Source of the DNA: Verrucomicrobiota bacterium
GTDB taxonomy: Bacteria > Verrucomicrobiota > Verrucomicrobiia > Verrucomicrobiales > DEV007
Assembly: GCA_045046875.1 (NCBI GenBank)
Contig: JASFYY010000022.1
Location: 1-64,000 of the forward strand
DNA: 64,000 bases
Direction of reading: 5' to 3'
A program made the translations under genes and the position numbers. Shown here piece after piece: positions 11,201-28,557 of the stretch. Every line of letters starts with the position of its first letter. Position 1 is the first letter of the stretch. The notes below the pieces were generated by a model. The model saw nothing but the letters and a program-made list of their open reading frames with translations, made no database searches and had not been told where the DNA came from.

Positions 11201-12214
11201 ATGGAACGCAAGGGAATCCTCGCCGCTGGCAGCTACATCGTCGATCATGTGAAAATGATCGACGCCTGGCCGCCTCAGGATGCCCTGGCGACTATTGTAA
11301 GCAAAGAAAGCAGCAACGGCGGAGGCCCTTACAATCTCAGCAAAGACATCGCGCGACTTTTCCCCGACGGTCCACCTTTTCCTTTGGCTGCCGCCGGATT
11401 AGTTGGCGACGATGCTGACGGGCGTTGGATTCTCGCCGACTGCCAAGCGCACCAGATCGATACCGCCCAACTGAAAACCACTGACCAGGCCCCCACCTCC
11501 TACACCGATGTGATGACGGTGGAAGCTGACGGACGGCGAACTTTTTTTCATCAACGCGGAGCCAATGCTCTTTTCAGTGAACAGGATCTGGATCTCGACC
11601 GAGTTGATGCCCGCATCTTCTATCTCGGTTACCTCTTACTGCTCGACACACTCGATCAGCTAACTGACAAAGGAACCCGAGCATCCTCCCTGCTTGCCAA
11701 CGCGCGCAGCCGCGGGTTGCTCACCGTGGTCGATCTGGTCAGTGCGGAGGGAGGCAACTTCACCGACATCGTCAGTCCCTCACTGCCTCACATCGACGTT
11801 CTGCTCACCAATGAATTTGAAGCCTCCCGCCTGTCCGGGATAGATCTGCACCAGGAATTTTCTGCAAAAAATGCACTCAAAGCCGCCCGCACCATTCTCG
11901 ACATGGGCGTGCAACAGCGAGTGGTCATCCACGCCCCACTCGGTGCCGTCGCGATTGATCGCAAACAAGGAGCCTTCACCGCAGGCTCCGTCGCCATGCC
12001 CGATAAAGTCATCCGAGGAGCCGTTGGTGCCGGTGACGCCTTTGCCGCGGGCATCGTTTATGGCTTGCACGAAAATTTGAGCATCGAGGAATCCCTCACC
12101 ACTGCCAGCTGCATTGCCGCCAGTTGTTTGTTGCATCCCACACCCTCCGGCGGCATCCGTCCACTTGACGACTGCCTCGGATTAGGTGAACAATGGGGAT
12201 TCCGCGATTTCTAA
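11201..12214 (+). CDS. PfkB/ribokinase family carbohydrate kinase
   Basis: GGGPYN, GLVGDDADG, NEFEA, GAGDAFAAG. Confidence 0.9.
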   Translation: MERKGILAAGSYIVDHVKMIDAWPPQDALATIVSKESSNGGGPYNLSKDIARLFPDGPPFPLAAAGLVGDDADGRWILADCQAHQIDTAQLKTTDQAPTSYTDVMTVEADGRRTFFHQRGANALFSEQDLDLDRVDARIFYLGYLLLLDTLDQLTDKGTRASSLLANARSRGLLTVVDLVSAEGGNFTDIVSPSLPHIDVLLTNEFEASRLSGIDLHQEFSAKNALKAARTILDMGVQQRVVIHAPLGAVAIDRKQGAFTAGSVAMPDKVIRGAVGAGDAFAAGIVYGLHENLSIEESLTTASCIAASCLLHPTPSGGIRPLDDCLGLGEQWGFRDF

Positions 12215-15502: not shown

Positions 15503-16084
15503 ATGCGCGATCAGCACTCAAACCCTATCCAAGATGCTTTAGTGCAACTCGGAACCCAAGCCGAAACACTCAAGCTTCCTTACTTACTCATTGGTGGTAA
15601 TGCCATAATTAGTTACGGCATCATCCGCCTCACCCGCGACATTGATTTCCTCATTCCCGAAACCGCCGTCAAAGAATGGCGTACTTTTCTCGAAAATTCC
15701 GGCTACCAGTGCTTCCACGCCACCCCCGCCTTCTGCCAATTCCATTCACAAGGTGAGCCACATGCACTTAACCTGGCCCCAGTCGACTTGATGATCGTTG
15801 ATACATCAACCTGGCAAAAATTGTCAGCAAAAGCAGAACGTAAAGCCATTACTAGAACCTACAGCCCCCATCTCCCAGCCGCCACCCACTTAATCGCTAT
15901 GAAACTTAAGGCTTGGCAAAATCCTCACCGCCGAGAAGACGCCCAAGACTGGAATGATATTGTGAAACTGATTCAAAAACTTGAAATAGACATCAAAAAG
16001 CCTGATGTTGCTGAGCTAATAGTCTCCTACGGAGGAAACGAAGCGCTGATTCAACTGGAAAACGCCCTATCCTCCTCCCCCTAA
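15503..16084 (+). CDS. Nucleotidyltransferase-fold protein (AbiEii/DUF6036-like)
   Basis: YLLIGGNA...RLTRDIDFL, VDL, LIAMKL, R...D..DI motifs. Confidence 0.75.
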   Translation: MRDQHSNPIQDALVQLGTQAETLKLPYLLIGGNAIISYGIIRLTRDIDFLIPETAVKEWRTFLENSGYQCFHATPAFCQFHSQGEPHALNLAPVDLMIVDTSTWQKLSAKAERKAITRTYSPHLPAATHLIAMKLKAWQNPHRREDAQDWNDIVKLIQKLEIDIKKPDVAELIVSYGGNEALIQLENALSSSP

Positions 16085-16391: not shown

Positions 16392-17240
16392 ATGAAACTT
16401 TTCACCAGACGCGCCGCCCTCAGAACCGGCTTACTCGGAGTCGCTGGAACCGGCTCGCTCGCCTACGGCAACTTGATCGAACGCCACCAACTGACCGTTG
16501 AACAAGTCAATTGCCCGCTTAAAGATGAACACTCCGACCTCGCTGGCCTGCGCATCGCCATGGTAGCCGATTTTCATTTTGACGAACTACAGGAAGGCGA
16601 GTTGGTCGACCGCTGTGTCAAACTGATCAATGCCCAGAAACCCGACCTGGTTGTATTGTGTGGTGACTATGTCAGTCATGACCGCGAACCGATCGAGCGC
16701 CTGTCACAGCATCTTGCCCAACTCAGCGCCCCGCCCGGCGTATTTGCCGTGTTAGGAAATCACGACCACTGGTCCGGCGCCGGTCACATCACTCGCCAAC
16801 TCAGCTCCTCCGGAATCGAAGTGCTGCGCAATCAAGCACCCACCCTGACTTACCGCCACAGCCCCTTCCAACTCGCCGGCCTCGGCAGTGCCTGGGCCGG
16901 TGCCGCCGACTACAAACACGCCCTGCCCGCCTCGACAAAACCCCCGTCCAGCAGTCCGCCCGTCATCCTCGCGATTCACGAACCCGATTTCTTCGACCGC
17001 ATCTGCAAAGACCCCCGCCTCGTCCTGCAGCTCTCCGGTCACACCCACGGCGGACAAGTCTGCGCCCCCTTTCTCGGAGCCATCCGCCTACCCTCATGGG
17101 GCAAAAACTACGTATCCGGTCTCTACCAGCGCCACGATAGCCACATCTACGTCACCCGGGGCGTCGGCACCCTCTTCCCCCACGTCCGCTTCTGCTGCCC
17201 CCCGGAGATTTCATTGATCACCCTGAGCGCAAACGTTTGA
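16392..17240 (+). CDS. Calcineurin-like metallophosphoesterase (YkuE-like), Tat-like signal
   Basis: TRRAALR; ADFH, GDY, GNHDH, HEPD, SGHTHGGQ, RGVG motifs. Confidence 0.9.
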   Translation: MKLFTRRAALRTGLLGVAGTGSLAYGNLIERHQLTVEQVNCPLKDEHSDLAGLRIAMVADFHFDELQEGELVDRCVKLINAQKPDLVVLCGDYVSHDREPIERLSQHLAQLSAPPGVFAVLGNHDHWSGAGHITRQLSSSGIEVLRNQAPTLTYRHSPFQLAGLGSAWAGAADYKHALPASTKPPSSSPPVILAIHEPDFFDRICKDPRLVLQLSGHTHGGQVCAPFLGAIRLPSWGKNYVSGLYQRHDSHIYVTRGVGTLFPHVRFCCPPEISLITLSANV

Positions 17241-17389
17241 GGCTCACTAAAGTCCAAACACCACTCCACAGGAGAGCGGGTTTTCCTACCCGCCGTAACA
17301 CCAATTTCCCTTTTGGCTCTTTTCCCCCTCACCATTCCGGATCTCAAATTTCAAATTGCCATCCTCCCCCATAACTCCCTTGCTCAAGG

Positions 17390-17406
17390 TGTAACACTGT
17401 GTCACA
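17390..17406. promoter_or_regulatory. Probable antitoxin operator palindrome
   Basis: TGTAACAC-T-GTGTCACA (7/8 dyad) 8 nt upstream of the antitoxin ATG, between TTGCTC and CACATT boxes. Confidence 0.5.
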
Positions 17407-17414
17407 TTAACCTC

Positions 17415-17648
17415 ATGCACAGTATTTCCATTCGAGAGCTCCATCAATCTACTGGAAAAATAGTCCGCTACGCTGCAACCCAATCGACCATCGTGACTGA
17501 TCGAGGGCGTCCCATAGCCATCATTAAAGCTATCACGGAGGCCGACCTGCCGGGCAAAGCATTGCCGCCTTCTCATTGGCAATCACAATCAAGGCCACGA
17601 ATCAAAACTGATTCGACCGCTACGGTTTCCACTGACCGAGACCGCTAA
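17415..17648 (+). CDS. Phd/YefM family antitoxin
   Basis: MHSISIRELHQSTGKIV...IVTDRGRPIAII; directly upstream of a PIN gene. Confidence 0.8.
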   Translation: MHSISIRELHQSTGKIVRYAATQSTIVTDRGRPIAIIKAITEADLPGKALPPSHWQSQSRPRIKTDSTATVSTDRDR

Positions 17649-17662
17649 GAGCTAGCTTGCTG

Positions 17663-18097
17663 ATGATCTATCTCGATACCTGTTATATTCTAAAGTGCTA
17701 CCTCACCGAGCACGGATCAGAGGAAGTCCGCCAGCTCACCCAGTCGGCCAACGGCTTGGCTTCCTGCGAACTCGCACGAGTAGAGTTCTCCGCCGCCGTT
17801 CACCGTCACCGGCGAGAAGGAAAACTCTCCGAAATCGACGCAAAAAAAGTATTCACCCATTTTCGAGCCGACGAAAAGTCCGGACTCTGGAAATGGTATC
17901 CTCTCACTCGAACTTTATTGGACGATGTGTTCAATGATTATCAAAACCTGGACTCCTCAGTATTTGTTCGAAGCAATGACGCCATCCACCTGGCTTGCGC
18001 CCGCCAGCAGGGTTTTAGGGAAATTCACAGCAACGATCGCCACCTGTTAAAATCAGCAGCAGCATTTTCCCTCCAAGGAATCAATGTCATCCCTTAA
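17663..18097 (+). CDS. vapC: VapC/PIN-domain toxin
   Basis: MIYLDTC..LK.YL.EHGS, RVEF, RSNDAIHLACA, SNDRHL. Confidence 0.85.
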   Translation: MIYLDTCYILKCYLTEHGSEEVRQLTQSANGLASCELARVEFSAAVHRHRREGKLSEIDAKKVFTHFRADEKSGLWKWYPLTRTLLDDVFNDYQNLDSSVFVRSNDAIHLACARQQGFREIHSNDRHLLKSAAAFSLQGINVIP

Positions 18098-18245
18098 GCC
18101 TCAGGCCGCCGTAACACAAATTTCCATATTTGTTCTTTTCTCTCACAATCTCAATTTTTAAACCCCCTCCCCCTGCTGGTGTCCCACCCTATGAGGTATA
18201 AATGAAGCCTTGATACCAATTCAGATTTCGAACACTATCCGCCGG

Positions 18246-18734
18246 ATGCCATTTTACGCCCATACTAAAGAAAATACAGATGGTTCTCCTGCTGCACAAA
18301 GCGAGTGGGAACTGTTGTTTACTCCTTTTGGTGACGGCGATAAAGAATGCCAAGGCAAGAATGGCGATTCTTGCCAGAAGTGCCATGACATGGATCCTCA
18401 GCATGGGCATCTGAATAAAGTCGCTTATTGGTCAGGGAAATTTGCTGCAGAGATGTTCCCTGAAGAAGCAGATCGGGAATCCGCTCGTCAATGGGGATAC
18501 CTCGCAGGGCTATGGCATGATTTGGGCAAATTCTCAGAAAAATTTCAAAACTACCTGACCAAGGTATCAGACATTCATTGTGATGAAATCCTAGAGCGCA
18601 TTGATCACACAAGTACCGGGGCAAAGCTATCCGCATCAAAATCCTTTCCCTTAGGACACTGCATCAGCACCGCCATTGCCCACAAAGCCTCTCTGGACCC
18701 AAAATGCCGATTTCAAAGGCCTGCCGTAGGTTAA
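18246..18734 (+). pseudogene. cas3: Truncated Cas3 HD-nuclease N-terminus (type I-C-like); similarity stops at ~18681
   Basis: FYAHT...HLNKVA...LAGLWHDLGKFSEKFQNYL...DHTSTGA...IA, then unrelated sequence where GHH and the helicase are expected. Confidence 0.8.
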
Positions 18735-18796
18735 TTATTTCCCTAAGCAGTAGTCTATTAGGCTATCCAATCAGCAATTATGATTCTCCTTCAATC

Positions 18797-18825
18797 TTGT
18801 TTTTACCCACATTTCCCCATAAGAT
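18797..18825 (+). promoter_or_regulatory. Sigma70-like promoter for the upstream sgRNA-like RNA
   Basis: TTGTTT-N17-TAAGAT; predicted TSS A18832 at the 5' end of the first hairpin. Confidence 0.55.
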
Positions 18826-18831
18826 ATCAAC

Positions 18832-18920
18832 ACTCCAGTCACGTTACTGGAATTTTTTTGGGTTCCGCTATCACCCAAACATCGTTGAGATGAAGCGGTA
18901 TTGTAAGCAAACGATAAATT
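18832..18920 (+). ncRNA. Putative natural single-guide RNA for Cas12b (fused tracr-like scaffold + repeat-like end + guide); 3' end approximate
   Basis: Hairpin TCCAGT/ACTGGA; stem TTTGGGT/ACCCAAA with 9-nt loop TCCGCTATC; hairpin CATC/GATG; A-AGCGG pairing with loop CCGCT; same layout as the tracrRNA+repeat with compensatory changes. Confidence 0.6.
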
Positions 18921-19050
18921 TCATTTAACTACACCAGTTATTCATTTCATTGATTACAATAGATTAAATTAAACCTTTACTCTCCCAAAACCTCTAATAT
19001 TGTGACATTCTCACCATTTTCTATCAAAGTATCAAACCCCACCACACATC

Positions 19051-22000
19051 ATGTCACTCAATAGGATTTTTCAGGGGCGCATCTCATCTTTCGCGCTACA
19101 AAATGATCAAGGAGAATTCGACGAGCTCAGCAATTTTGCAGCAGAAACTTCCCCGCTTTTCCAACATCATCGAGTTTTTCAGGATGCCGTGAACTACTAT
19201 TTGCTGGCCATAGTTGCCCTTGCTGACCGTAATAAAGACACTCCCCTGGCACAACTCGCTTCGCGAATGGAAGAGGTATGGTCACCCTTTGTAAAACGAA
19301 ATCACCATTTTTCAGGGCTATTAGCATCGCTGGCGCCTTGGTTGGAACTCGATTCCAAAGCCACGTTGCCGGATGCCTTTAACAAAATTCTCGCCGACAA
19401 CCCGGCGGATAAGGAATTGCTGAATCTAGCAGCTGCATCCCTGCTCCTCGACCTGGGAGGCGACTCGGCCATCCAGCAGGGAGGGAGAACTTATTTCCCG
19501 CTACTTTGCGACCCGAAATCAAGTGCCAACTTCCCGCGCGGTTCTGTTAATCGCTTGAAATCGAAAGGCAAAGCCATTCTCGCATCCATCTTGTGGGCTC
19601 ACGACATCGATAACAAATCCCCGGAACTTGGCAAAAAATTACACTATGATTATTTTGCCAATCCCACTACCGACGGGAAAAAAATCGAAGGAAAATTTGC
19701 CCGAAGAAAACTAACCGAAGCACTGGCACATGAGCATGCAACCCTGGTTCTTCCTCCGCAGCTAAAAATCGAATTGGAACTCAGTATCCAGCAATTACCT
19801 GAAGACTACTCCTTCCCTAATTACACCGGCGGTAGTGTTAATAAAGACGCTCTTAAACGCCGCTTTTTTCTTTATCTTCTCACTGCCCACGTTTCACCAG
19901 ATCCTAAACTTTACCAACGCCTCCGTGACACCTTCCAACAGCCAACGACGCTCGTCAGTGAATACATCCCCAAAGAAGCGGAATTACCCTTCCTCAAACT
20001 CGACGACGATCCGATCAAACTGGCGCGATGTAAACGAGGCTATGTCTTCCCAGCTTTTACCGCACTTCCTCTATGGACTGATGTGAAGGGCCGTCGCGCC
20101 ACGTGGAAAGAGTTCGACATTGCCGCTTTTAAAGAAGCACTTAAAACCATCAACCAATTCAAGGCAAAAACAGCCGAGCGAAAAGCGCGTATGGCAGTCC
20201 TCGCGACTTCCATCGATTACATCAAGGGCGCTACAAGCAAGAAACCTAAAATCACTGACGAAGAAACCGATGAAGTTCCAATTCACACCTTCAAAAAAGA
20301 TGCCCGCTACCCACTTTTGACTAAACTACGGACTGATTTAGGCATCACTGACGAGGAAGAAGAATTCCATGAGCGAGGGATTTCGCGGTCCGGCATACGC
20401 GGCTTTAGAGATATCCGAAAGCAGTGGGATGCCCTGTTCAAAGAAGGTCGACCAAATCCAAGCGAAACATTGCTTGTCGACATTGCTCAGCAATATCAAA
20501 AAGATAACTCCCGAAGCATCGGAGATGCCACGCTCTTTCAAAAACTTGCTCAAGCTGAATTCCACATACTTTGGAGAAATCCCTGTGAGAAAGAAAAAAT
20601 TGAGCGTATTCGCAGCAACCACGCAGTGGATGTTTTTTCCGCCTATATCACCTTGGCTGATTTTGAATCCGAGCTCAAACGCTGTGCCGACCCCATCAAG
20701 TTCACGCCTGCCGATCCGATCCACTCGCGCAGATTATTCATGTTTTCAGACATGACGGGTAGTACCAAAGCCAAGATTGATTTGGAGAAAGGTGAAATCG
20801 CATTGTCAATAGTGTGCCAACAACAAGGCACGTGGCTGACACGCAAAGCTAGACTCACATTCTCAGCCCCCCGCCTCAAACGGGACGGACTCATCGCCCG
20901 ATCAAATGCGCCCTGGCTACCTCCTGTTATGGGTGGACTGGAACTGGATTCCCAATACGCCGTCATGGATAAGATTGCCCTGAGTTACATGCCCACAACC
21001 CGCGCCGACGGGGGCATCACCCATTTGTTGAACTTTCCCGTTACCTTCGATGAAAGCGCACTGCTCGAGGCGATCGGCAAAAAAGCTATCTGGGATGGCA
21101 ACTTCAACGGCACAAAGAACACTAAACTCCACCTGCTGTGGCCGAGTATTAGCGAAGCCAAAGGAAAAAAATCTCTTTCTTGGTGGAAAAATTCAACGGT
21201 CATTGCACAGGGCTTTCAAGTCATGGGGGTTGATCTTGGACAACGTGCAGCCGCCGCATGTTCGATTTTGGATATTCGCTGCGACAACCGTTTCCATAAG
21301 AACCAAAAACCATTCACCTTGGTTGGTAGAACAGACGGTCATGACTGGAAAGCAAGTTTGCGCGCGCAATTCACCCTGAAATTACCTGGCGAGGGAATGT
21401 CCATCCTTGGGGAAAACGGCAAATTTTCCAAGGAACCCGGAGGCAACCGCGGTCGAAAATCGACCGAAAGTGAATGGCAAGAGGCTTGTGCCGCTGCGGC
21501 TGTATTCATTGACGAGCCGTCTTCGTGGCTCGGAAAATCATTTAAGCAACTCACCTACCCTGAACAAAACGACAAGCTTGTAAAAATTCTCCGCCGTTCA
21601 AACAGCCGTTACCGCTCGCTTTTTCGGGCGTCCTGGATGTTAGACACCGATCTGGAAACCGCGCTTGAAATAGTGAAATCATTCCCCTCAGCAACTAATC
21701 TGACGGGCTTGGCTGAGAGTAAAAATATAGGTAAATTAAAAATATCTCTGCAAGAGCAATTAGAAAGCCTTTCTACAGGAGTCATCAATTTTATTGAAAT
21801 AATTGCCAATCGAATCCTGCCTCAACGTGATTACATTTGGGAATGGGCTCCGCATTCAAGCAGTTCGTTTGGCGACGACGGTTGGCATGAATTGAAACGC
21901 AAGCCTTCTAAAATTCACCCAAAAATAAATCCACAGAGACAACGTGGGATTTCCATGGCGCGCATCGAACAACTTGATATTTTTCGTCGAACACTGCTCT

Positions 22001-23127
22001 CATTCAATCGCAGCCAACAAGAAAAATTCGGGGTGAAACCAACATCGGGAGCTGCTCGTCGGGAACAACCCACTCCAGAAGTCTGCCCTGAGATATTGGG
22101 GAAAATCAACAATATAAAAACCCAACGAGTTAACCAAACAGCGCACATGATTCTGGCCCAGGCCCTGGGTGTCAAACTCACCAGCAACAAGACCAGCAAG
22201 GCTGAACGTCGAGATCATGACATTCACGGGGAATACGAAGCCATTACTGGTAGAGCGCCCGTTGATTTTATCGTCCTCGAAGACCTCCGTCGTTACACCA
22301 TGTCCAGCGACCGCCCTCCTTTTGAGAACGGACGCTTGATGAAATGGTGTCACAGCGCAATCACTGATAAAGTGAAGGAACTCTGTGAACCTTACGGAAT
22401 CACTGTTCTGGAAACATTTCCCGCCTATACCTCGAAATTCCATTCTGTTCTGCACTGCGCTGGATTCCGAGCCCGTCAAATCACCCGCACGGATGCATGC
22501 AGTTCCTATGCAATGATGCTGGCAGAGAAAGTCAAACTCACGCCCATCGAAACTCTAAAAAACAGCCTCTTCGCAAAACTCCGGGAAGCAGCTAATAAAA
22601 ATATTTTCATGCCAGGACTATGGCTTCCGGAAAATGGTGGTCCTTATTTCATCGGACTAATGAAAACACAAGATGGATACCGCCCTACACCACCCCATCA
22701 CGCAGACTTAAACGCATCAGTGAATATTGCTCTCAACGCTATAGCAGCGCCCGATTCAACTCACCTCTTACGCAAAATACGTGCCGAACACAAAGCAGGA
22801 AAGCCCGTCCTAGTTAAATCGAATAAACGGGAAAAAGCCGCCTTTGGGAATAACCCTGACATCACATTCGCTACTAAACCTGAAGCCGCGTTTATTGCAA
22901 AAAACCGTTTTAATATTTTTGCCGACATGGGCAAGCTAGCAACCTTTGACTCCATCACCATCGAAGGAATAACAGAGCCCCTAGCAACTGCACGAGGCTT
23001 GTTCAAAGCCGTAAAAAACGAGAAATGGGCCGTCTGTGAAGGACTCAATCACAACATCCTGAAAAATGCCGGATTGGCACCAAACAGTTTACATATAGAT
23101 CCCGACGACGATCAAATCCCCATGTGA
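19051..23127 (+). CDS. cas12b: Type V-B CRISPR effector Cas12b (C2c1), 1358 aa, long Opitutaceae-like form
   Basis: MSLNRIFQGR N-terminus and DDDQIPM C-terminus resemble Opitutaceae C2c1 as recalled; RuvC-I GVDLGQR, RuvC-II IVLEDL, RuvC-III HADLNASVNI; next to cas4/1, cas2 and the array. Confidence 0.92.
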   Translation: MSLNRIFQGRISSFALQNDQGEFDELSNFAAETSPLFQHHRVFQDAVNYYLLAIVALADRNKDTPLAQLASRMEEVWSPFVKRNHHFSGLLASLAPWLELDSKATLPDAFNKILADNPADKELLNLAAASLLLDLGGDSAIQQGGRTYFPLLCDPKSSANFPRGSVNRLKSKGKAILASILWAHDIDNKSPELGKKLHYDYFANPTTDGKKIEGKFARRKLTEALAHEHATLVLPPQLKIELELSIQQLPEDYSFPNYTGGSVNKDALKRRFFLYLLTAHVSPDPKLYQRLRDTFQQPTTLVSEYIPKEAELPFLKLDDDPIKLARCKRGYVFPAFTALPLWTDVKGRRATWKEFDIAAFKEALKTINQFKAKTAERKARMAVLATSIDYIKGATSKKPKITDEETDEVPIHTFKKDARYPLLTKLRTDLGITDEEEEFHERGISRSGIRGFRDIRKQWDALFKEGRPNPSETLLVDIAQQYQKDNSRSIGDATLFQKLAQAEFHILWRNPCEKEKIERIRSNHAVDVFSAYITLADFESELKRCADPIKFTPADPIHSRRLFMFSDMTGSTKAKIDLEKGEIALSIVCQQQGTWLTRKARLTFSAPRLKRDGLIARSNAPWLPPVMGGLELDSQYAVMDKIALSYMPTTRADGGITHLLNFPVTFDESALLEAIGKKAIWDGNFNGTKNTKLHLLWPSISEAKGKKSLSWWKNSTVIAQGFQVMGVDLGQRAAAACSILDIRCDNRFHKNQKPFTLVGRTDGHDWKASLRAQFTLKLPGEGMSILGENGKFSKEPGGNRGRKSTESEWQEACAAAAVFIDEPSSWLGKSFKQLTYPEQNDKLVKILRRSNSRYRSLFRASWMLDTDLETALEIVKSFPSATNLTGLAESKNIGKLKISLQEQLESLSTGVINFIEIIANRILPQRDYIWEWAPHSSSSFGDDGWHELKRKPSKIHPKINPQRQRGISMARIEQLDIFRRTLLSFNRSQQEKFGVKPTSGAARREQPTPEVCPEILGKINNIKTQRVNQTAHMILAQALGVKLTSNKTSKAERRDHDIHGEYEAITGRAPVDFIVLEDLRRYTMSSDRPPFENGRLMKWCHSAITDKVKELCEPYGITVLETFPAYTSKFHSVLHCAGFRARQITRTDACSSYAMMLAEKVKLTPIETLKNSLFAKLREAANKNIFMPGLWLPENGGPYFIGLMKTQDGYRPTPPHHADLNASVNIALNAIAAPDSTHLLRKIRAEHKAGKPVLVKSNKREKAAFGNNPDITFATKPEAAFIAKNRFNIFADMGKLATFDSITIEGITEPLATARGLFKAVKNEKWAVCEGLNHNILKNAGLAPNSLHIDPDDDQIPM

Positions 23128-23139
23128 AACACAAACAAC

Positions 23140-24798
23140 ATGACCGAACAACCCCTCATCCCCGTTCGTCGCCTACACAACTACGCCTACTGCCCCCGCC
23201 TTTTTTATTATCAGTGGGTGGAAAACCTCTTTGTTGAAAATGCTGATACCATTGCAGGAAAGTCTGTTCATCGCAACGTCGATAGACCCAGTTCTTGGAA
23301 AGACGACCTCGACCTCTCCGAACGCGCATCCCTACGCTCGCTTCATTTATCCAGTGAAAGCCTTGGCATCGTAGGGGTCATTGATCTGATTGAAGATACC
23401 GACTCTGGTCATGAGTTACTTGACTATAAAAAAGGTGCCTCACGTAAAGACGAGAACGGCTCGCGAATTCCTAAAGAAAATGACGCCCTACAAATAGCAG
23501 CTTATGCCTTATTACTCCGAGAGCACGGCATGGCTCCATCCAAGGCCTCCATTTATTATGCCCAAGAGCGTCGTCGTGTTCCTGTAGAATTGATCAAACA
23601 ACTTTATGAACAATGCCAACAACTCATTAAGGCAGCACAACAAACAGCGGGATCAGGCAAATGTCCTCCACCGCTCCACAACGATCCACGTTGCCTTCAT
23701 TGCTCCGCCTACTGCATTTGCCTGCCCAATGAATCAGCATTTTGGGGAGGAACCCTAGAATCGCCTCTCACGGAAAAAGAACCTCCTCGCCCACCTGGAG
23801 ACGAAGGCGAAATCCTTATTGTGCAAGAACCTCGAGCCTACGTGGGTAAAAAAGCAGGCGAAATCACTGTGAAACTTGAAAAAAAAGTAATTTCCAAACA
23901 TCCCATCGAACAGCTTCAAGCCGTTTACCTTTACGGAGGGATACAGGTCAGCACTCAAGCTCTACATTCCTTGTTAGAGAAAAACATCCCCGTTGCTTAT
24001 TTTTCACCTGCCGGAAGGTTTTTGGGGCTAACTGCTGGACTCCCTACATCAGGGATAGATGCGCGGCTTGGTCAAGCCCGCCTATTTAACTCACTCGAAC
24101 ATCGCCTAGCACTAGCACGAGAAATAATCAGAGCTAAAATAAACAACCAGCGAGTGCTACTCATGCGTAACGGGCAAGCCCCCGACCTTGCGCTCAAACA
24201 ACTCGCGACCTTGCGCGACAAAACGATACACGCTTCCGACCTCGATGAACTACGCGGATTAGAAGGAAATGCTGCCGCTCATTATTTTTGCCATTTTGGG
24301 ACAATGCTAAAAGGCTCCGCCTTTGAGAATTTTGATTTTGAAGGGCGCAATCGTCGGCCACCCCGAGATCCTATCAATTCGCTACTCTCCCAAGGTTACT
24401 CTATCCTCTCCAAAGAACTCACAGGTATGTGCCATGCCGTAGGCCTTGATCCCTTTATCGGCTTTTTCCACCAACCACGCTACGGTCGCCCCGCCCTAGC
24501 TCTGGATCTCATGGAAGAATTCCGTCCTCTCATTGCGGATTCCGTTGTTATTTCTCTACTCAACCGCCGCGAACTTGAGCCTAATGATTTCACTCAAACT
24601 TCACGCGGCACCTTTCTCACAAACGAAGGTCGGCGGCAATTTTGGCGTGCCTGGTTTCGCCGCATGGATACAGAGGTCAAGCACCCCCAATTTGGTTACC
24701 GCATGACTTACCGCCGGATGCTTGACGTGCAAACTCGGCAACTCTGGCGCTACCTCCGTGGAGAGACCGAAACCTACCATGGGTTCACCACCCGCTGA
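23140..24798 (+). CDS. cas1: Cas4-Cas1 fusion
   Basis: Cas4: YCPR, GVIDL..DYKKG, QIAAY, CLHC...C. Cas1: GLEGNAA, RNRRPPRDPINSLLS, GFFH, LDLMEEFR. Confidence 0.96.
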   Translation: MTEQPLIPVRRLHNYAYCPRLFYYQWVENLFVENADTIAGKSVHRNVDRPSSWKDDLDLSERASLRSLHLSSESLGIVGVIDLIEDTDSGHELLDYKKGASRKDENGSRIPKENDALQIAAYALLLREHGMAPSKASIYYAQERRRVPVELIKQLYEQCQQLIKAAQQTAGSGKCPPPLHNDPRCLHCSAYCICLPNESAFWGGTLESPLTEKEPPRPPGDEGEILIVQEPRAYVGKKAGEITVKLEKKVISKHPIEQLQAVYLYGGIQVSTQALHSLLEKNIPVAYFSPAGRFLGLTAGLPTSGIDARLGQARLFNSLEHRLALAREIIRAKINNQRVLLMRNGQAPDLALKQLATLRDKTIHASDLDELRGLEGNAAAHYFCHFGTMLKGSAFENFDFEGRNRRPPRDPINSLLSQGYSILSKELTGMCHAVGLDPFIGFFHQPRYGRPALALDLMEEFRPLIADSVVISLLNRRELEPNDFTQTSRGTFLTNEGRRQFWRAWFRRMDTEVKHPQFGYRMTYRRMLDVQTRQLWRYLRGETETYHGFTTR

Positions 24799-24816: not shown

Positions 24817-25101
24817 ATGGCTAGAACTCGCTACCTCGTTTCTTACGACATCTCTGATCCAAAGCGACTGCGGCACGTCGCCAAAACTTGCGAATCATTT
24901 GGTACGCGTATTCAATATTCCGTTTTTGAATGCCCTTTAGATGACCTACGTCTAGAAAAACTGAAACACGCTTTGCTAACAACTATCAATCACGATGAGG
25001 ACCAGGTTCTATTCATCTCACTAGGCCCAGAGCACTCCCCTTTTCGCATCGTAGCACTTGGACAGCCTTACACCGAGCGCTCTCGAGTCACTATTATTTG
25101 A
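24817..25101 (+). CDS. cas2: CRISPR-associated endoribonuclease Cas2
   Basis: YLVSYDISDPKRL..V.K...FG.RIQYSVFEC. Confidence 0.97.
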   Translation: MARTRYLVSYDISDPKRLRHVAKTCESFGTRIQYSVFECPLDDLRLEKLKHALLTTINHDEDQVLFISLGPEHSPFRIVALGQPYTERSRVTII

Positions 25102-25138: not shown

Positions 25139-25140
25139 GC

Positions 25141-25205
25141 AGTTAGCTACGTGCTACTTTTCGCGAACCACCGCCTTCGGTTTCGCCAAGCTTGTTCTTT
25201 AACAT
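25141..25205 (+). ncRNA. Predicted tracrRNA (split anti-repeat); ends approximate
   Basis: CCGCCT (25171-25176) complementary to repeat 3' AGGCGG; CAAGCT-tgt-TCTTTAA (25187-25202) complementary to repeat TTAAAGAAGCTTG; enclosing stem GCGAACC/GGTTTCGC; 5' hairpin; lies between cas2 and the array as in V-B loci. Confidence 0.75.
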
Positions 25206-25408: not shown

Positions 25409-27320
25409 GGTTCATCCGCTAGGATTTAAAGAAGCTTGAGGCGGTAGGGCGTCCAGGGCCTCTGAGGTATCAGGGGCGGGTTCATCCGCTAGGATTTAAA
25501 GAAGCTTGAGGCGGCCCTTCATAGGTGGTGGTGAACGTGGAGCATCGTGGGTTCATCCGCTAGGATTTAAAGAAGCTTGAGGCGGCTGGCGACCGTGGGC
25601 ACGGACTCGTTGAGGTGGGGTTCATCCGCTAGGATTTAAAGAAGCTTGAGGCGGTTTCAAGGTGAATTGAGCCCTCCTGGTGGGCACTGGTTCATCCGCT
25701 AGGATTTAAAGAAGCTTGAGGCGGATAGCCACCCAGGATGGACGAGGAGGCAATAGGGTAGGGTTCATCCGCTAGGATTTAAAGAAGCTTGAGGCGGAGA
25801 AAATGAGTTGCCGGAAAGCGTGCAGATTGCGGGGTTCATCCGCTAGGATTTAAAGAAGCTTGAGGCGGCGTATACATATCGCAATCAGATTCCCGTAGTT
25901 CGGGTTCATCCGCTAGGATTTAAAGAAGCTTGAGGCGGTGGAGGCTGCGTCGGCTACGGTGACTCGGTTTTTGGTTCATCCGCTAGGATTTAAAGAAGCT
26001 TGAGGCGGAGTAGGAGGCTTCTCAGCAAGAGCCGTTGCCGCAGGGTTCATCCGCTAGGATTTAAAGAAGCTTGAGGCGGTCCTAATCTCACGCCCGAGGA
26101 AATTTTTAAAAGCGGTTCATCCGCTAGGATTTAAAGAAGCTTGAGGCGGCCGAAACTTATCGGTCGATTATATCTGACAATGTGGTTCATCCGCTAGGAT
26201 TTAAAGAAGCTTGAGGCGGAATCAAACTATCCCTTAATTGGTGCTCGTCCATAGGTTCATCCGCTAGGATTTAAAGAAGCTTGAGGCGGTTTACTCATAA
26301 GCATTTGTCCGCGAGCGTGTAAAAGGTTCATCCGCTAGGATTTAAAGAAGCTTGAGGCGGTCAGCTTCAGGTGGATATACTGGAGAACCCGTGGTGGTTC
26401 ATCCGCTAGGATTTAAAGAAGCTTGAGGCGGTCATCCATGGCTTTTAATACAGCGTCTCTTATCCGGTTCATCCGCTAGGATTTAAAGAAGCTTGAGGCG
26501 GTCATCGGAGACATTTACAAAGCTGCCGAGATTGTGGTTCATCCGCTAGGATTTAAAGAAGCTTGAGGCGGATGGATGAAGAAATAGGCAAATGCGATTA
26601 CTTGGGGTTCATCCGCTAGGATTTAAAGAAGCTTGAGGCGGCTTCGTCAGGGTGAACGTATGCAGATTGTGGTCTGGGTTCATCCGCTAGGATTTAAAGA
26701 AGCTTGAGGCGGCGAGAAACCTACAGGGGGCAACGCTCGAATTTGAGGTTCATCCGCTAGGATTTAAAGAAGCTTGAGGCGGTCAACTTCACACTCTCCT
26801 TTTTTCGCGGGTGCTTGGTTCATCCGCTAGGATTTAAAGAAGCTTGAGGCGGTAAGGAAATTGAAATGTTTGTTCTCATTTAATAAAGGTTCATCCGCTA
26901 GGATTTAAAGAAGCTTGAGGCGGGCCGTCGGCAGCAATGTAGGGCTCATTCGTAGCTGGTTCATCCGCTAGGATTTAAAGAAGCTTGAGGCGGGCTAGAT
27001 TGCGGGAACTTTTCGCTAATCAAAAAAGGTTCATCCGCTAGGATTTAAAGAAGCTTGAGGCGGAGATGAAAGAACTAATGGAGGGGCTGAAATGAGTGGT
27101 TCATCCGCTAGGATTTAAAGAAGCTTGAGGCGGAAGGCACAATTTTCATGATGGAACTAAAAGCACAAGGTTCATCCGCTAGGATTTAAAGAAGCTTGAG
27201 GCGGCTTAAATTATCGGTTCCTGTGTTGATCTCAGTAAGGTTCATCCGCTAGGATTTAAAGAAGCTTGAGGCGGCCGTTCCAAACGATGCAGATGCGTCT
27301 GGCTGCTCGGTTCATCCTCT
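25409..27320 (+). CRISPR. Type V-B CRISPR array: 27 identical 36-nt repeats GGTTCATCCGCTAGGATTTAAAGAAGCTTGAGGCGG (25409-27274), 27 spacers of 33-37 nt, truncated terminal repeat at 27309
   Basis: Counted directly; orientation from the leader side, the degenerate distal repeat (GGTTCATCCTCT) and the tracr anti-repeat. Confidence 0.98.
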
Positions 27321-27809: not shown

Positions 27810-27842
27810 ATCGCCCCCTTCACGGGGGGCGCGGATTGAAAC
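27810..27842 (+). CRISPR. Solo type I-C-like CRISPR repeat
   Basis: ATCGCCCCCTTCACGGGGGGCGCGGATTGAAAC: GC hairpin plus GGATTGAAAC 3' end typical of I-C repeats; single copy. Confidence 0.75.
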
Positions 27843-27919
27843 CTCGTCTAAATCCTTACCCGCTCGCTCTAGTAAAACCAAATAGCTTTACATATCATAT
27901 TAAGCACCATAAAGTTAAT

Positions 27920-28135
27920 ATGATGGACATTTCTACTTTATCCCCCAAATATCAAACCGTCATACCAAAGAAGATTCGTAAAGAGATGAATCTCCAACCG
28001 GGACAACAACTTCAATTCACTGTCAAAGACGGCCGCATTGAAATCCAACCCATCCTCTCTGGCCAAGAGCTCATCGGATACCTCAAAGAAACCAAACCAC
28101 TTGAATTTAATCGCGATGCTGACCGCAAACTTTAG
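27920..28135 (+). CDS. AbrB/MazE-type antitoxin
   Basis: TLSPKYQTVIPKKIRKEMNLQPGQQLQF...GRIEIQP. Confidence 0.85.
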   Translation: MMDISTLSPKYQTVIPKKIRKEMNLQPGQQLQFTVKDGRIEIQPILSGQELIGYLKETKPLEFNRDADRKL

Positions 28136-28173
28136 GCCCCTGTAAAATAGCCTTTGCCAACCCACCTAAGTCC

Positions 28174-28557
28174 ATGCTCCATATCCTTGATTCTTCAGCG
28201 TGGTTGGAATGCCTCGACAACGGCCCCAACACGTGTCACTTCGAACCCATTTTACTCCAATTGCCCTCCTTGCTCGTCCCCAGCATCATACTTACAGAAG
28301 TGCGCAAAGTTGTGCTATCACAACGAACACAGGAACAAGCAGAAAGTGTCACCCGCAGCATACGTTCGGCTCAAATCATCCCCATCGACGCCCAAATTGC
28401 CAGCTCTGCCGCCGACCTATTCATCCAATACGGACTCCCACTCGCCGACTCCATCATCTACGCGGTCACCCTCTCTCACAATGCCACCCTTTGGACACAG
28501 GATGCTGATTTCAAAAACCTGCCTCACGTTAACTATTTCCCAAAACGTAAAACCTAA
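28174..28557 (+). CDS. vapC: VapC/PIN-domain toxin
   Basis: ILDSSAWLE, ILTEV, LPLADSIIYA, LWTQDADF. Confidence 0.88.
   Translation: MLHILDSSAWLECLDNGPNTCHFEPILLQLPSLLVPSIILTEVRKVVLSQRTQEQAESVTRSIRSAQIIPIDAQIASSAADLFIQYGLPLADSIIYAVTLSHNATLWTQDADFKNLPHVNYFPKRKT

Follow-up and report, generated by a model that had tools for sequence, protein, structure and literature searches.

A predicted single-guide RNA upstream of cas12b in a type V-B locus, and its partial match to the putative cas12b promoter region

The type V-B locus and a second tracrRNA-like module

The window, i.e. the whole 64-kb stretch of DNA that was analysed, carries a complete type V-B locus, comprised of cas12b, a cas4-cas1 fusion, cas2, a tracrRNA and a CRISPR array:

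19051..23127, plus strand: cas12b, encoding a protein of 1358 aa (NF033949, E 9.8e-183; PF22126)
23140..24798, plus strand: cas4-cas1 fusion
24817..25101, plus strand: cas2
25140..25205 (ends approximate), plus strand: canonical tracrRNA, with stem 1, stem 2 (loop CCGCCT at 25171) and a second anti-repeat at 25187-25202
25409..27274, plus strand: CRISPR array of 27 repeats of 36 nt, with the repeat end GAGGCGG

The orientation of the array was confirmed at the level of the clade from protospacer flanks. The encoded Cas12b contains the RuvC triad (D728, E1077 and D1219), which is invariant among 33 homologues; with this triad intact, the protein is predicted to be an active nuclease and not a dead repressor. 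Its relatives (from genomes and metagenomes; the best 80 of 196 and the best 80 of 254 stretches) show ca. 28-44% identity and mostly bear Verrucomicrobiota labels. In a 110-row Cas12b tree the protein forms a long branch, with at most 40% identity to any row. Both the repeat end and the 5' module of the tracrRNA are strongly conserved in this clade, the latter consisting of a small stem 1 and a stem 2, whose CCGCC loop is the complement of the repeat end. Among 69 distinct sequences, 98.1% of the cells of stem 2 are paired and two-sided changes occur at all six of its pairs. A scan of the window against Rfam returned no matches.

Upstream of cas12b, at 18834-18898 (plus strand), there is a complete Cas12b single-guide scaffold of ca. 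65 nt, as judged from its predicted structure. This scaffold, its guide and the site matched by the guide are composed of the following features:

18797..18825, plus strand: putative promoter of the single-guide RNA, TTGTTT-N17-TAAGAT, the best local sigma70-like match (7/12), below the scanner threshold
18834..18851, plus strand: stem 1 of the scaffold (6 bp), equivalent to that of the tracrRNA
18857..18879, plus strand: scaffold stem 2, 7 bp, its loop containing the anti-repeat CCGCT (18865-18869), able to pair with AGCGG
18880..18892, plus strand: short repeat:anti-repeat-like hairpin, 4 bp
18894..18898, plus strand: repeat-like end AGCGG (the array repeat ends in GGCGG)
18899..18918, plus strand: guide, whose first 12 nt match the target; no terminator was found
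18950..18961, minus strand: target, a protospacer-like site with an 8-nt seed and an 11/12 match
18962..18964, minus strand: flank ATC in the position of a PAM, identical in 10 of 12 relatives

The predicted scaffold duplicates the 5' module of the tracrRNA in diverged form and is joined to a repeat-like end. Loop and end have changed together, from CCGCC:GGCGG in the tracrRNA and array to CCGCT:AGCGG in the element, with the pairing kept. Likeness to the array repeat is confined to the last 8 nt (7/8), and the element does not stand out by its folding energy alone (z -1.04). A structural descriptor designed with the window element already known (a stem of at least 6 bp around a CCGYY loop, with the complement of the loop downstream) matched this element only in the 64-kb window and had 30 matches in 11.2 Mb (both strands of the genome), of which a single one, again the element, is compact and combines a stem 2 of at least 7 bp with a stem 1 of at least 5 bp. 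Neither a covariance model of 70 clade tracrRNA modules (E up to 10), in whose training set stem 1 was poorly aligned, nor the clade tracrRNA HMM matched the element. The canonical tracrRNA was the best covariance-model match in the window, yet it scored 11.1 bits (E 0.51). Since both models miss the element, it is assigned to the family described below by its structure, position, seed and flank.

The guide starts with TATTGTAAGCAA (18899-18910, plus strand), directly after AGCGG, and the target TATTGTAATCAA lies at 18961-18950 (minus strand) with the 5' flank TAATC. The first-pass annotation had reported this match and we confirmed both strings, the flank and the pattern of eight perfect bases, one mismatch (position 9) and three further matches; overall, 13 of 20 positions agree. 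The distance to the cas12b start codon, estimated there as ca. 90 bp, was measured as exactly 90 bp from the first target base to the ATG at 19051. Spanning -101 to -90 from this ATG, the window target is a positional outlier compared with those of the toxin-bearing loci described below (-32 to -2). The 292-nt intergenic region (36% GC), from which the guide had been taken out, was resampled 100,000 times with a first-order Markov model; the chance of such a site was 0.0011, falling to 0.00002 when the ATC flank was included. Of 2000 shuffled guides, 2.2% attained an 8-nt seed. The seed occurs at 88 other sites in the genome. Nine sites, including that in the promoter region, reach at least 11/12, and among three seed sites with an [AT]TC flank the promoter-region site is the only one above 9/12. 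A longer perfect match to the guide (13 nt), which surpasses the promoter-region site, was observed at 11293-11305 (plus strand) inside the ORF 11201-12214; given its GAC flank, it is probably not bound.

The element and its associated gene in related cas12b loci

The same element, with twelve different guides, is present in 12 related cas12b loci (protein identities of ca. 30-35%). The layout was first seen in L029, L078 and L095, on scanning 106 upstream regions, and the module in these three loci clearly duplicates the tracrRNA. An HMM of the tracrRNA only, blind to guide and target, then identified nine more loci (L044, L046, L047, L058, L067, L107, L124, L132 and L143). All 13 guides (window and relatives) differ from one another. 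In each of the 13 loci the best seed match, searched for from 300 nt before the element up to the cas12b start, begins at guide base 1 and lies upstream of cas12b; seeds are 6-11 nt long (those of L047, L124, L132 and L143 continue past a bulge, as read by eye) and the distance from guide to target is 58-297 nt. The covariation of guide and target in homologues, which the first-pass annotation had named as a check, was thereby found in all 12 relatives that carry the element.

The target is flanked by ATC in 11 of the 13 loci, by TTC in one and by ATT in one, while guides swapped between loci gave an ATC flank in 4 of 156 cases and [AT]T[CT] in 19 of 156. The nine later loci provide a fair test of the flank, because they were found after the pattern had first been seen; eight of them have ATC and one ATT. 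In 11 of the 13 loci the guide has an antisense orientation relative to the downstream transcript, and in L046 and L107 the targets are located on the same strand as the guide (direct repeats), with the AT[CT] flank kept. The scaffolds of the relatives reach up to about 130 nt. In seven of 11 relatives examined, a TTG-N17/18-TAnnnT match precedes the scaffold by 11-12 nt, and the position of a putative promoter of the single-guide RNA itself looks conserved.

On a quick 110-row Cas12b tree the 13 loci occupy ca. 10 separate places; three pairs are close kin, and related loci are not independent. The element is present in ca. 13 of 97 non-redundant loci with at least 700 nt of upstream sequence, and must therefore be considered optional. 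The observation is real, non-random and family-wide, and the relation of guide, target and putative PAM in the family is, as far as sequence can tell, far more secure than a function in the window genome.

In 11 of the 12 relatives a gene encoding 84-111 aa (split over two frames in L029) is located between the target and cas12b. It mostly ends within 50 nt of cas12b, and the seed lies at most 32 nt from its ATG in all 11 loci. None of 11 proteins matched Pfam at cut-off and none of three matched NCBIfam. The predicted fold (pLDDT 86) resembles RelE (Z 12.2, rmsd 2.1, 80 aligned) and ParE (TM 0.78); by this fold the small protein is toxin-like, and we infer its role as a toxin, a common fold not being proof of function. 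Among the loci searched, members of this toxin-like family were found only beside the single-guide RNA. The window genome contains none (best E 0.42), and both the window and L058 lack such a gene before cas12b.

Eight of 39 representatives of the toxin-like family are predicted to be extended at the N-terminus by sequence resembling a translation of the RNA module, three (P0070, P0078 and P0081) begin with the N-terminus of Cas12b, and in L047 and L067 a 5' fragment of cas12b precedes the RNA-toxin unit. The cas12b fragments before the RNA and the Cas12b-like N-termini suggest that a cassette may have been inserted at the cas12b start, duplicating the start of the gene. A C-terminal AA, often LAA, is present in 27 of the 39 representatives (P0043-P0081) and in 7 of 10 aligned proteins, and small ORFs with this ending were noted in L044, L047, L067, L078, L095, L124 and L143. 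We take this ending to resemble an ssrA-type protease degradation tag.

In L058, the second toxin-free locus (9-nt seed, ATC flank), the element (position 2421, minus strand) faces away from cas12b, shows CCGTC:GACGG pairing and has its target 205 nt before cas12b. A likely 14th element, listed apart from the 13, occurs in L300 (1061-1489), with a seed of 7 including one G:U pair and an ATC flank; it is followed by a 101-aa ORF with no match to a RelE-like profile and no placement in the Atlas. L043 has a single degenerate repeat ca. 157 nt upstream of cas12b (minus strand), and the 9 nt after this repeat match a site, flanked by AAC, that also lies upstream of cas12b. It may represent a variant akin to CreR or scaRNA that relies on the normal tracrRNA, or a product of chance; its layout differs and it was left out of the 13. 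L164 and L053 were rejected as carriers of the element, their true tracrRNAs being in other positions and having no fused repeat end. The tracrRNA of L164 and a solitary repeat are found upstream of cas12b on the minus strand, facing away from the gene. Four loci in which no cas12b start was parsed (L109, L161, L100 and L022) and four duplicates (L120, L125, L131 and L297) were also left out. An earlier AGCGG in L107 was rejected as a repeat end, as it yields no target, and loose motif scans of whole loci were too noisy. A search for near relatives added nine new loci: seven without the element (two of them without a parsed start), one duplicate and L300.

Target flanks, promoters and the downstream unit

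Characterised Cas12b proteins are described as using a TTN PAM (PMC11423069, PMC12204704). The first-pass annotation had listed the departure of the TAATC flank from this motif as a caveat. Seven spacers were scanned in viral contigs, of which two had true protospacers, and following one phage added two more. The phage protospacers of three L088 spacers (33-35 matches of 35-36) have the flank TTC and that of one L036 spacer (first 25 nt perfect, 29/37) has ATC; the flank ends in TC at all four of these phage protospacers, which stem from two relatives, and at 12 of the 13 regulatory targets. ATC fits the PAM predicted for the clade, the phage evidence for ATC itself being one spacer from the relative L036. 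The first-pass annotation had seen a PAM strictly incompatible with ATC as an outcome that would speak against its reading; instead, ATC is the commonest flank (11/13) and is also found at a phage protospacer of one relative.

Five of the seven spacers, including the one scanned out of 26 in the window array, had no real match in viral contigs. The window array compared with phages gave two weak records, which were not used, and 3202 pooled spacer entries (redundant, both strands) yielded no convincing protospacer in all loci and the window genome. No usable protospacer was found for the arrays of L169 (phages and 151 genomes of the genus), L124 (plasmids) or L015 (four phage records). ChCas12b, which belongs to another clade (E 7e-11 only), was rejected as a guide to the PAM. 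At least three, and probably four, of the eight spacers in the L088 array (16847-17450) are directed against one phage lineage (G528-G530); one further L088 match, with a gap, was noted (L286).

The first-pass annotation had assigned the target to the cas12b promoter region, pointing to a TACAAT box within it and to a second candidate just downstream:

18976..19003, plus strand: promoter candidate TTTACT-N16-TATTGT; a rival, GTGACA-N17-CAAAGT, scores equally

Both sequences are present (TACAAT at 18955-18960), but neither is supported as a specific promoter element: scores are weak, TACAAT has no good -35 partner, a consensus scan of 18100-19100 returned no plus-strand promoter, and -10-like hexamers are not enriched within target plus PAM (5/12 versus 3.1 expected from control windows). 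Several candidate cas promoters lie near the window target, all of them weak. The 87 nt between the window PAM and cas12b contain no ORF, and the only unit downstream of the target is the cas operon. Taking into account that the position of the single-guide RNA's own putative promoter looks conserved, blocking of read-through and promoter occlusion would be equally possible.

Possible autorepression, rival readings and known systems

The best explanation for the window genome, and one that we consider quite probable, is autorepression of the cas12b operon by its own single-guide RNA. The duplicated, diverged tracrRNA module with its repeat-like end would be expressed under a promoter of its own to give a single guide ready for use, which would load Cas12b without array or tracrRNA and lead it to the PAM-flanked site 62 bp downstream, in the region driving cas12b-cas4/1-cas2. 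With ca. 8-12 bp of pairing, the intact nuclease would bind and not cut. Cas12b orthologues are reported to need 19-20 bp for cutting (PMC12204704), and 10 nt to allow binding of Cas12a without cutting (10.1101/2024.10.29.618823). The bound Cas12b may block either initiation at the operon promoter or read-through from the promoter of the single-guide RNA. This would create a negative feedback, in which the operon is shut by spare Cas12b and opens when crRNA becomes more abundant or when Cas12b is lost or inhibited. In most relatives the repressed unit would start with the RelE/ParE-fold gene, the single-guide RNA acting as an antitoxin, and the window would represent the version without this gene. 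Autorepression had already been put forward in the first-pass annotation: the idea gains from the guide-target covariation, the ATC flank and the fit of the phage protospacers, it loses the promoter elements named there, and we infer the repression itself.

Alternatively, the window element may be a relic of an RNA-plus-toxin cassette that lost its toxin gene, with an RNA that binds weakly or a site that lies off the working promoter. The lack of any gene between target and cas12b and of a toxin family member in the genome (best E 0.42) would agree with this, as would a scaffold diverged beyond the clade models, the mismatch at position 9 and the unusual distance to the ATG. We nevertheless regard a relic as unlikely: the helices, the matched change of loop and end, the 8-nt seed and the ATC flank are all intact together, the true tracrRNA of the window is equally diverged from the model (11.1 bits), and L058, also toxin-free, retains a 9-nt seed and ATC.

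Pairing at the RNA level, as a stem in a read-through leader or as antisense near the mRNA start, with no DNA binding, is very improbable. If 18833-18966 is read through, guide and target do pair in its lowest-energy fold (-28.5 kcal/mol), and the antisense orientation of the guide in 11 of 13 loci, adjoining the start codon in the toxin loci, would suit such a role. However, the targets of L046 and L107 are direct repeats that cannot pair as RNA, yet have an AT[CT] flank, and the start at base 1 and the PAM-like flank of all 13 loci would be needless for RNA pairing. The RNA stem raised as a caveat in the first-pass annotation thus fails as a general explanation, and on the same grounds recognition of DNA by Cas12b appears the economical reading. 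There is even less to be said for an RNA that mainly ties up or stores spare Cas12b, with the target match secondary; viral single guides are reported to sequester Cas9 (10.64898/2026.06.01.729453), but a decoy needs no target, and all 13 loci keep one with a PAM-like flank. A chance match in AT-rich DNA, for which one could cite the 36% GC of the region, the 2.2% of 2000 shuffled guides with an 8-nt seed and the better 13-nt match elsewhere in the window, is largely refuted and of negligible probability, because the joint probability with ATC is 0.00002 and the pattern recurs with other sequences in 12 of 12 relatives.

RNA-guided self-repression has been described for Cas9, type I complexes and Cas12a. 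By analogy, the element would work like tracr-L and CreR, and in the relatives like CrePA, but it lacks defining features of each. In the case of Cas9 (II-A and II-C), tracr-L is a natural single guide whose guide is on the 11-nt scale and by which an active nuclease is led to the promoter of its own gene, as proposed for the window element; the distribution of tracr-L among relatives is patchy, as is that of our element (10.1101/2020.05.21.102756). Scaffold, repeat-like part and short guide are united in one RNA in both cases (in the window, by predicted structure). The effector here is Cas12b, with a 5' PAM and the guide at the 3' end, in contrast to Cas9. Moreover, the window RNA has its own gene next to cas12b, at a distance of 6.3 kb from that of the tracrRNA, whereas tracr-L is a long isoform of its own tracrRNA, and the at least 11 perfect bases applied to tracr-L compare with 8 in the window (11/12) and 6-11 in the relatives.

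CreR (I-B, I-E, V-A) is also an RNA gene upstream of the effector and matches in part a site with a PAM, located in CreR systems at the cas promoter; in M. bovoculi this site adjoins the -35, which is where the promoter candidate of the first-pass annotation would place the window site (10.1101/2023.03.10.532045). CreR, however, consists of a degenerate repeat and spacer and belongs to systems that lack a tracrRNA (10.1101/2023.03.10.532045), whereas a tracrRNA scaffold is built into the window RNA. CreTA and CrePA are toxins repressed by type I Cas proteins (10.1101/2024.01.05.574328, PMC12737573); comparably, in 11 of our 12 relatives the guide is directed at the start region of a small, toxin-like gene within the cas locus. 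The relatives differ from these in their class 2 effector, in a putative single-guide antitoxin and in a protein of predicted RelE/ParE fold encoded directly upstream of the effector gene; in the window no protein toxin gene lies under the targeted region. Phage vsgRNAs and Cas9-regulating scaRNAs are compact natural single guides that silence an effector promoter, as the window element is proposed to do, but they are Cas9-specific and phage-borne or tracrRNA-dependent, whereas the elements described here reside in bacterial cas12b loci (10.64898/2026.06.01.729453). One motif scan of viral contigs gave no copy of the element.

Neither self-repression of Cas12b nor a natural Cas12b single guide was found in the full-text literature, preprint supplements (which could list V-B candidates), subscription journals and patents lying outside this search. 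In the text available to it, V-B does not occur in 10.1101/2023.03.10.532045 and 10.1101/2024.10.29.618823, nor Cas12 in 10.1101/2024.01.05.574328 and 10.1101/2020.05.21.102756, and 10.1101/2023.03.03.530964 names V-B once, for its tracrRNA only. Within this searchable literature, self-repression is not described for Cas12b, nor via a stand-alone chromosomal single guide derived from a duplicated tracrRNA.

On a wider scale, we lean slightly towards a mobile cassette of a single guide and a RelE/ParE-fold toxin that inserts at the 5' end of cas12b across a PVC-type Cas12b clade, placing toxin and cas operon under one switch held by Cas12b. This would be a class 2 addiction and anti-anti-CRISPR device with a single-guide antitoxin, of which the window would contain a toxin-free, purely autoregulatory form. 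If true, (i) an untapped Cas12b clade with a WTC-type PAM would come with guides already provided by nature, on scaffolds that can be as short as ca. 65 nt, (ii) the layout of the engineered Cas12b sgRNA would exist in nature, (iii) Cas-repressed protein toxins would extend to a class 2 system, and (iv) 13 natural sets of guide, target and PAM would make the rules of binding without cutting, and the PAM of this uncharacterised Cas12b clade, directly testable.

The neighbourhood of the window locus includes a remnant of a type I locus, namely a truncated Cas3 HD-domain ORF (18210-18734) that ends 100 nt before the scaffold. The flanks of the CRISPR locus (17313-18097, 27836-28557 and 15503-16084) encode Phd-PIN and AbrB/MazE-PIN pairs and a nucleotidyltransferase (weak AbiEii match), and parts of the locus lie between diverged direct repeats (17290/18106 and 18691/28489).
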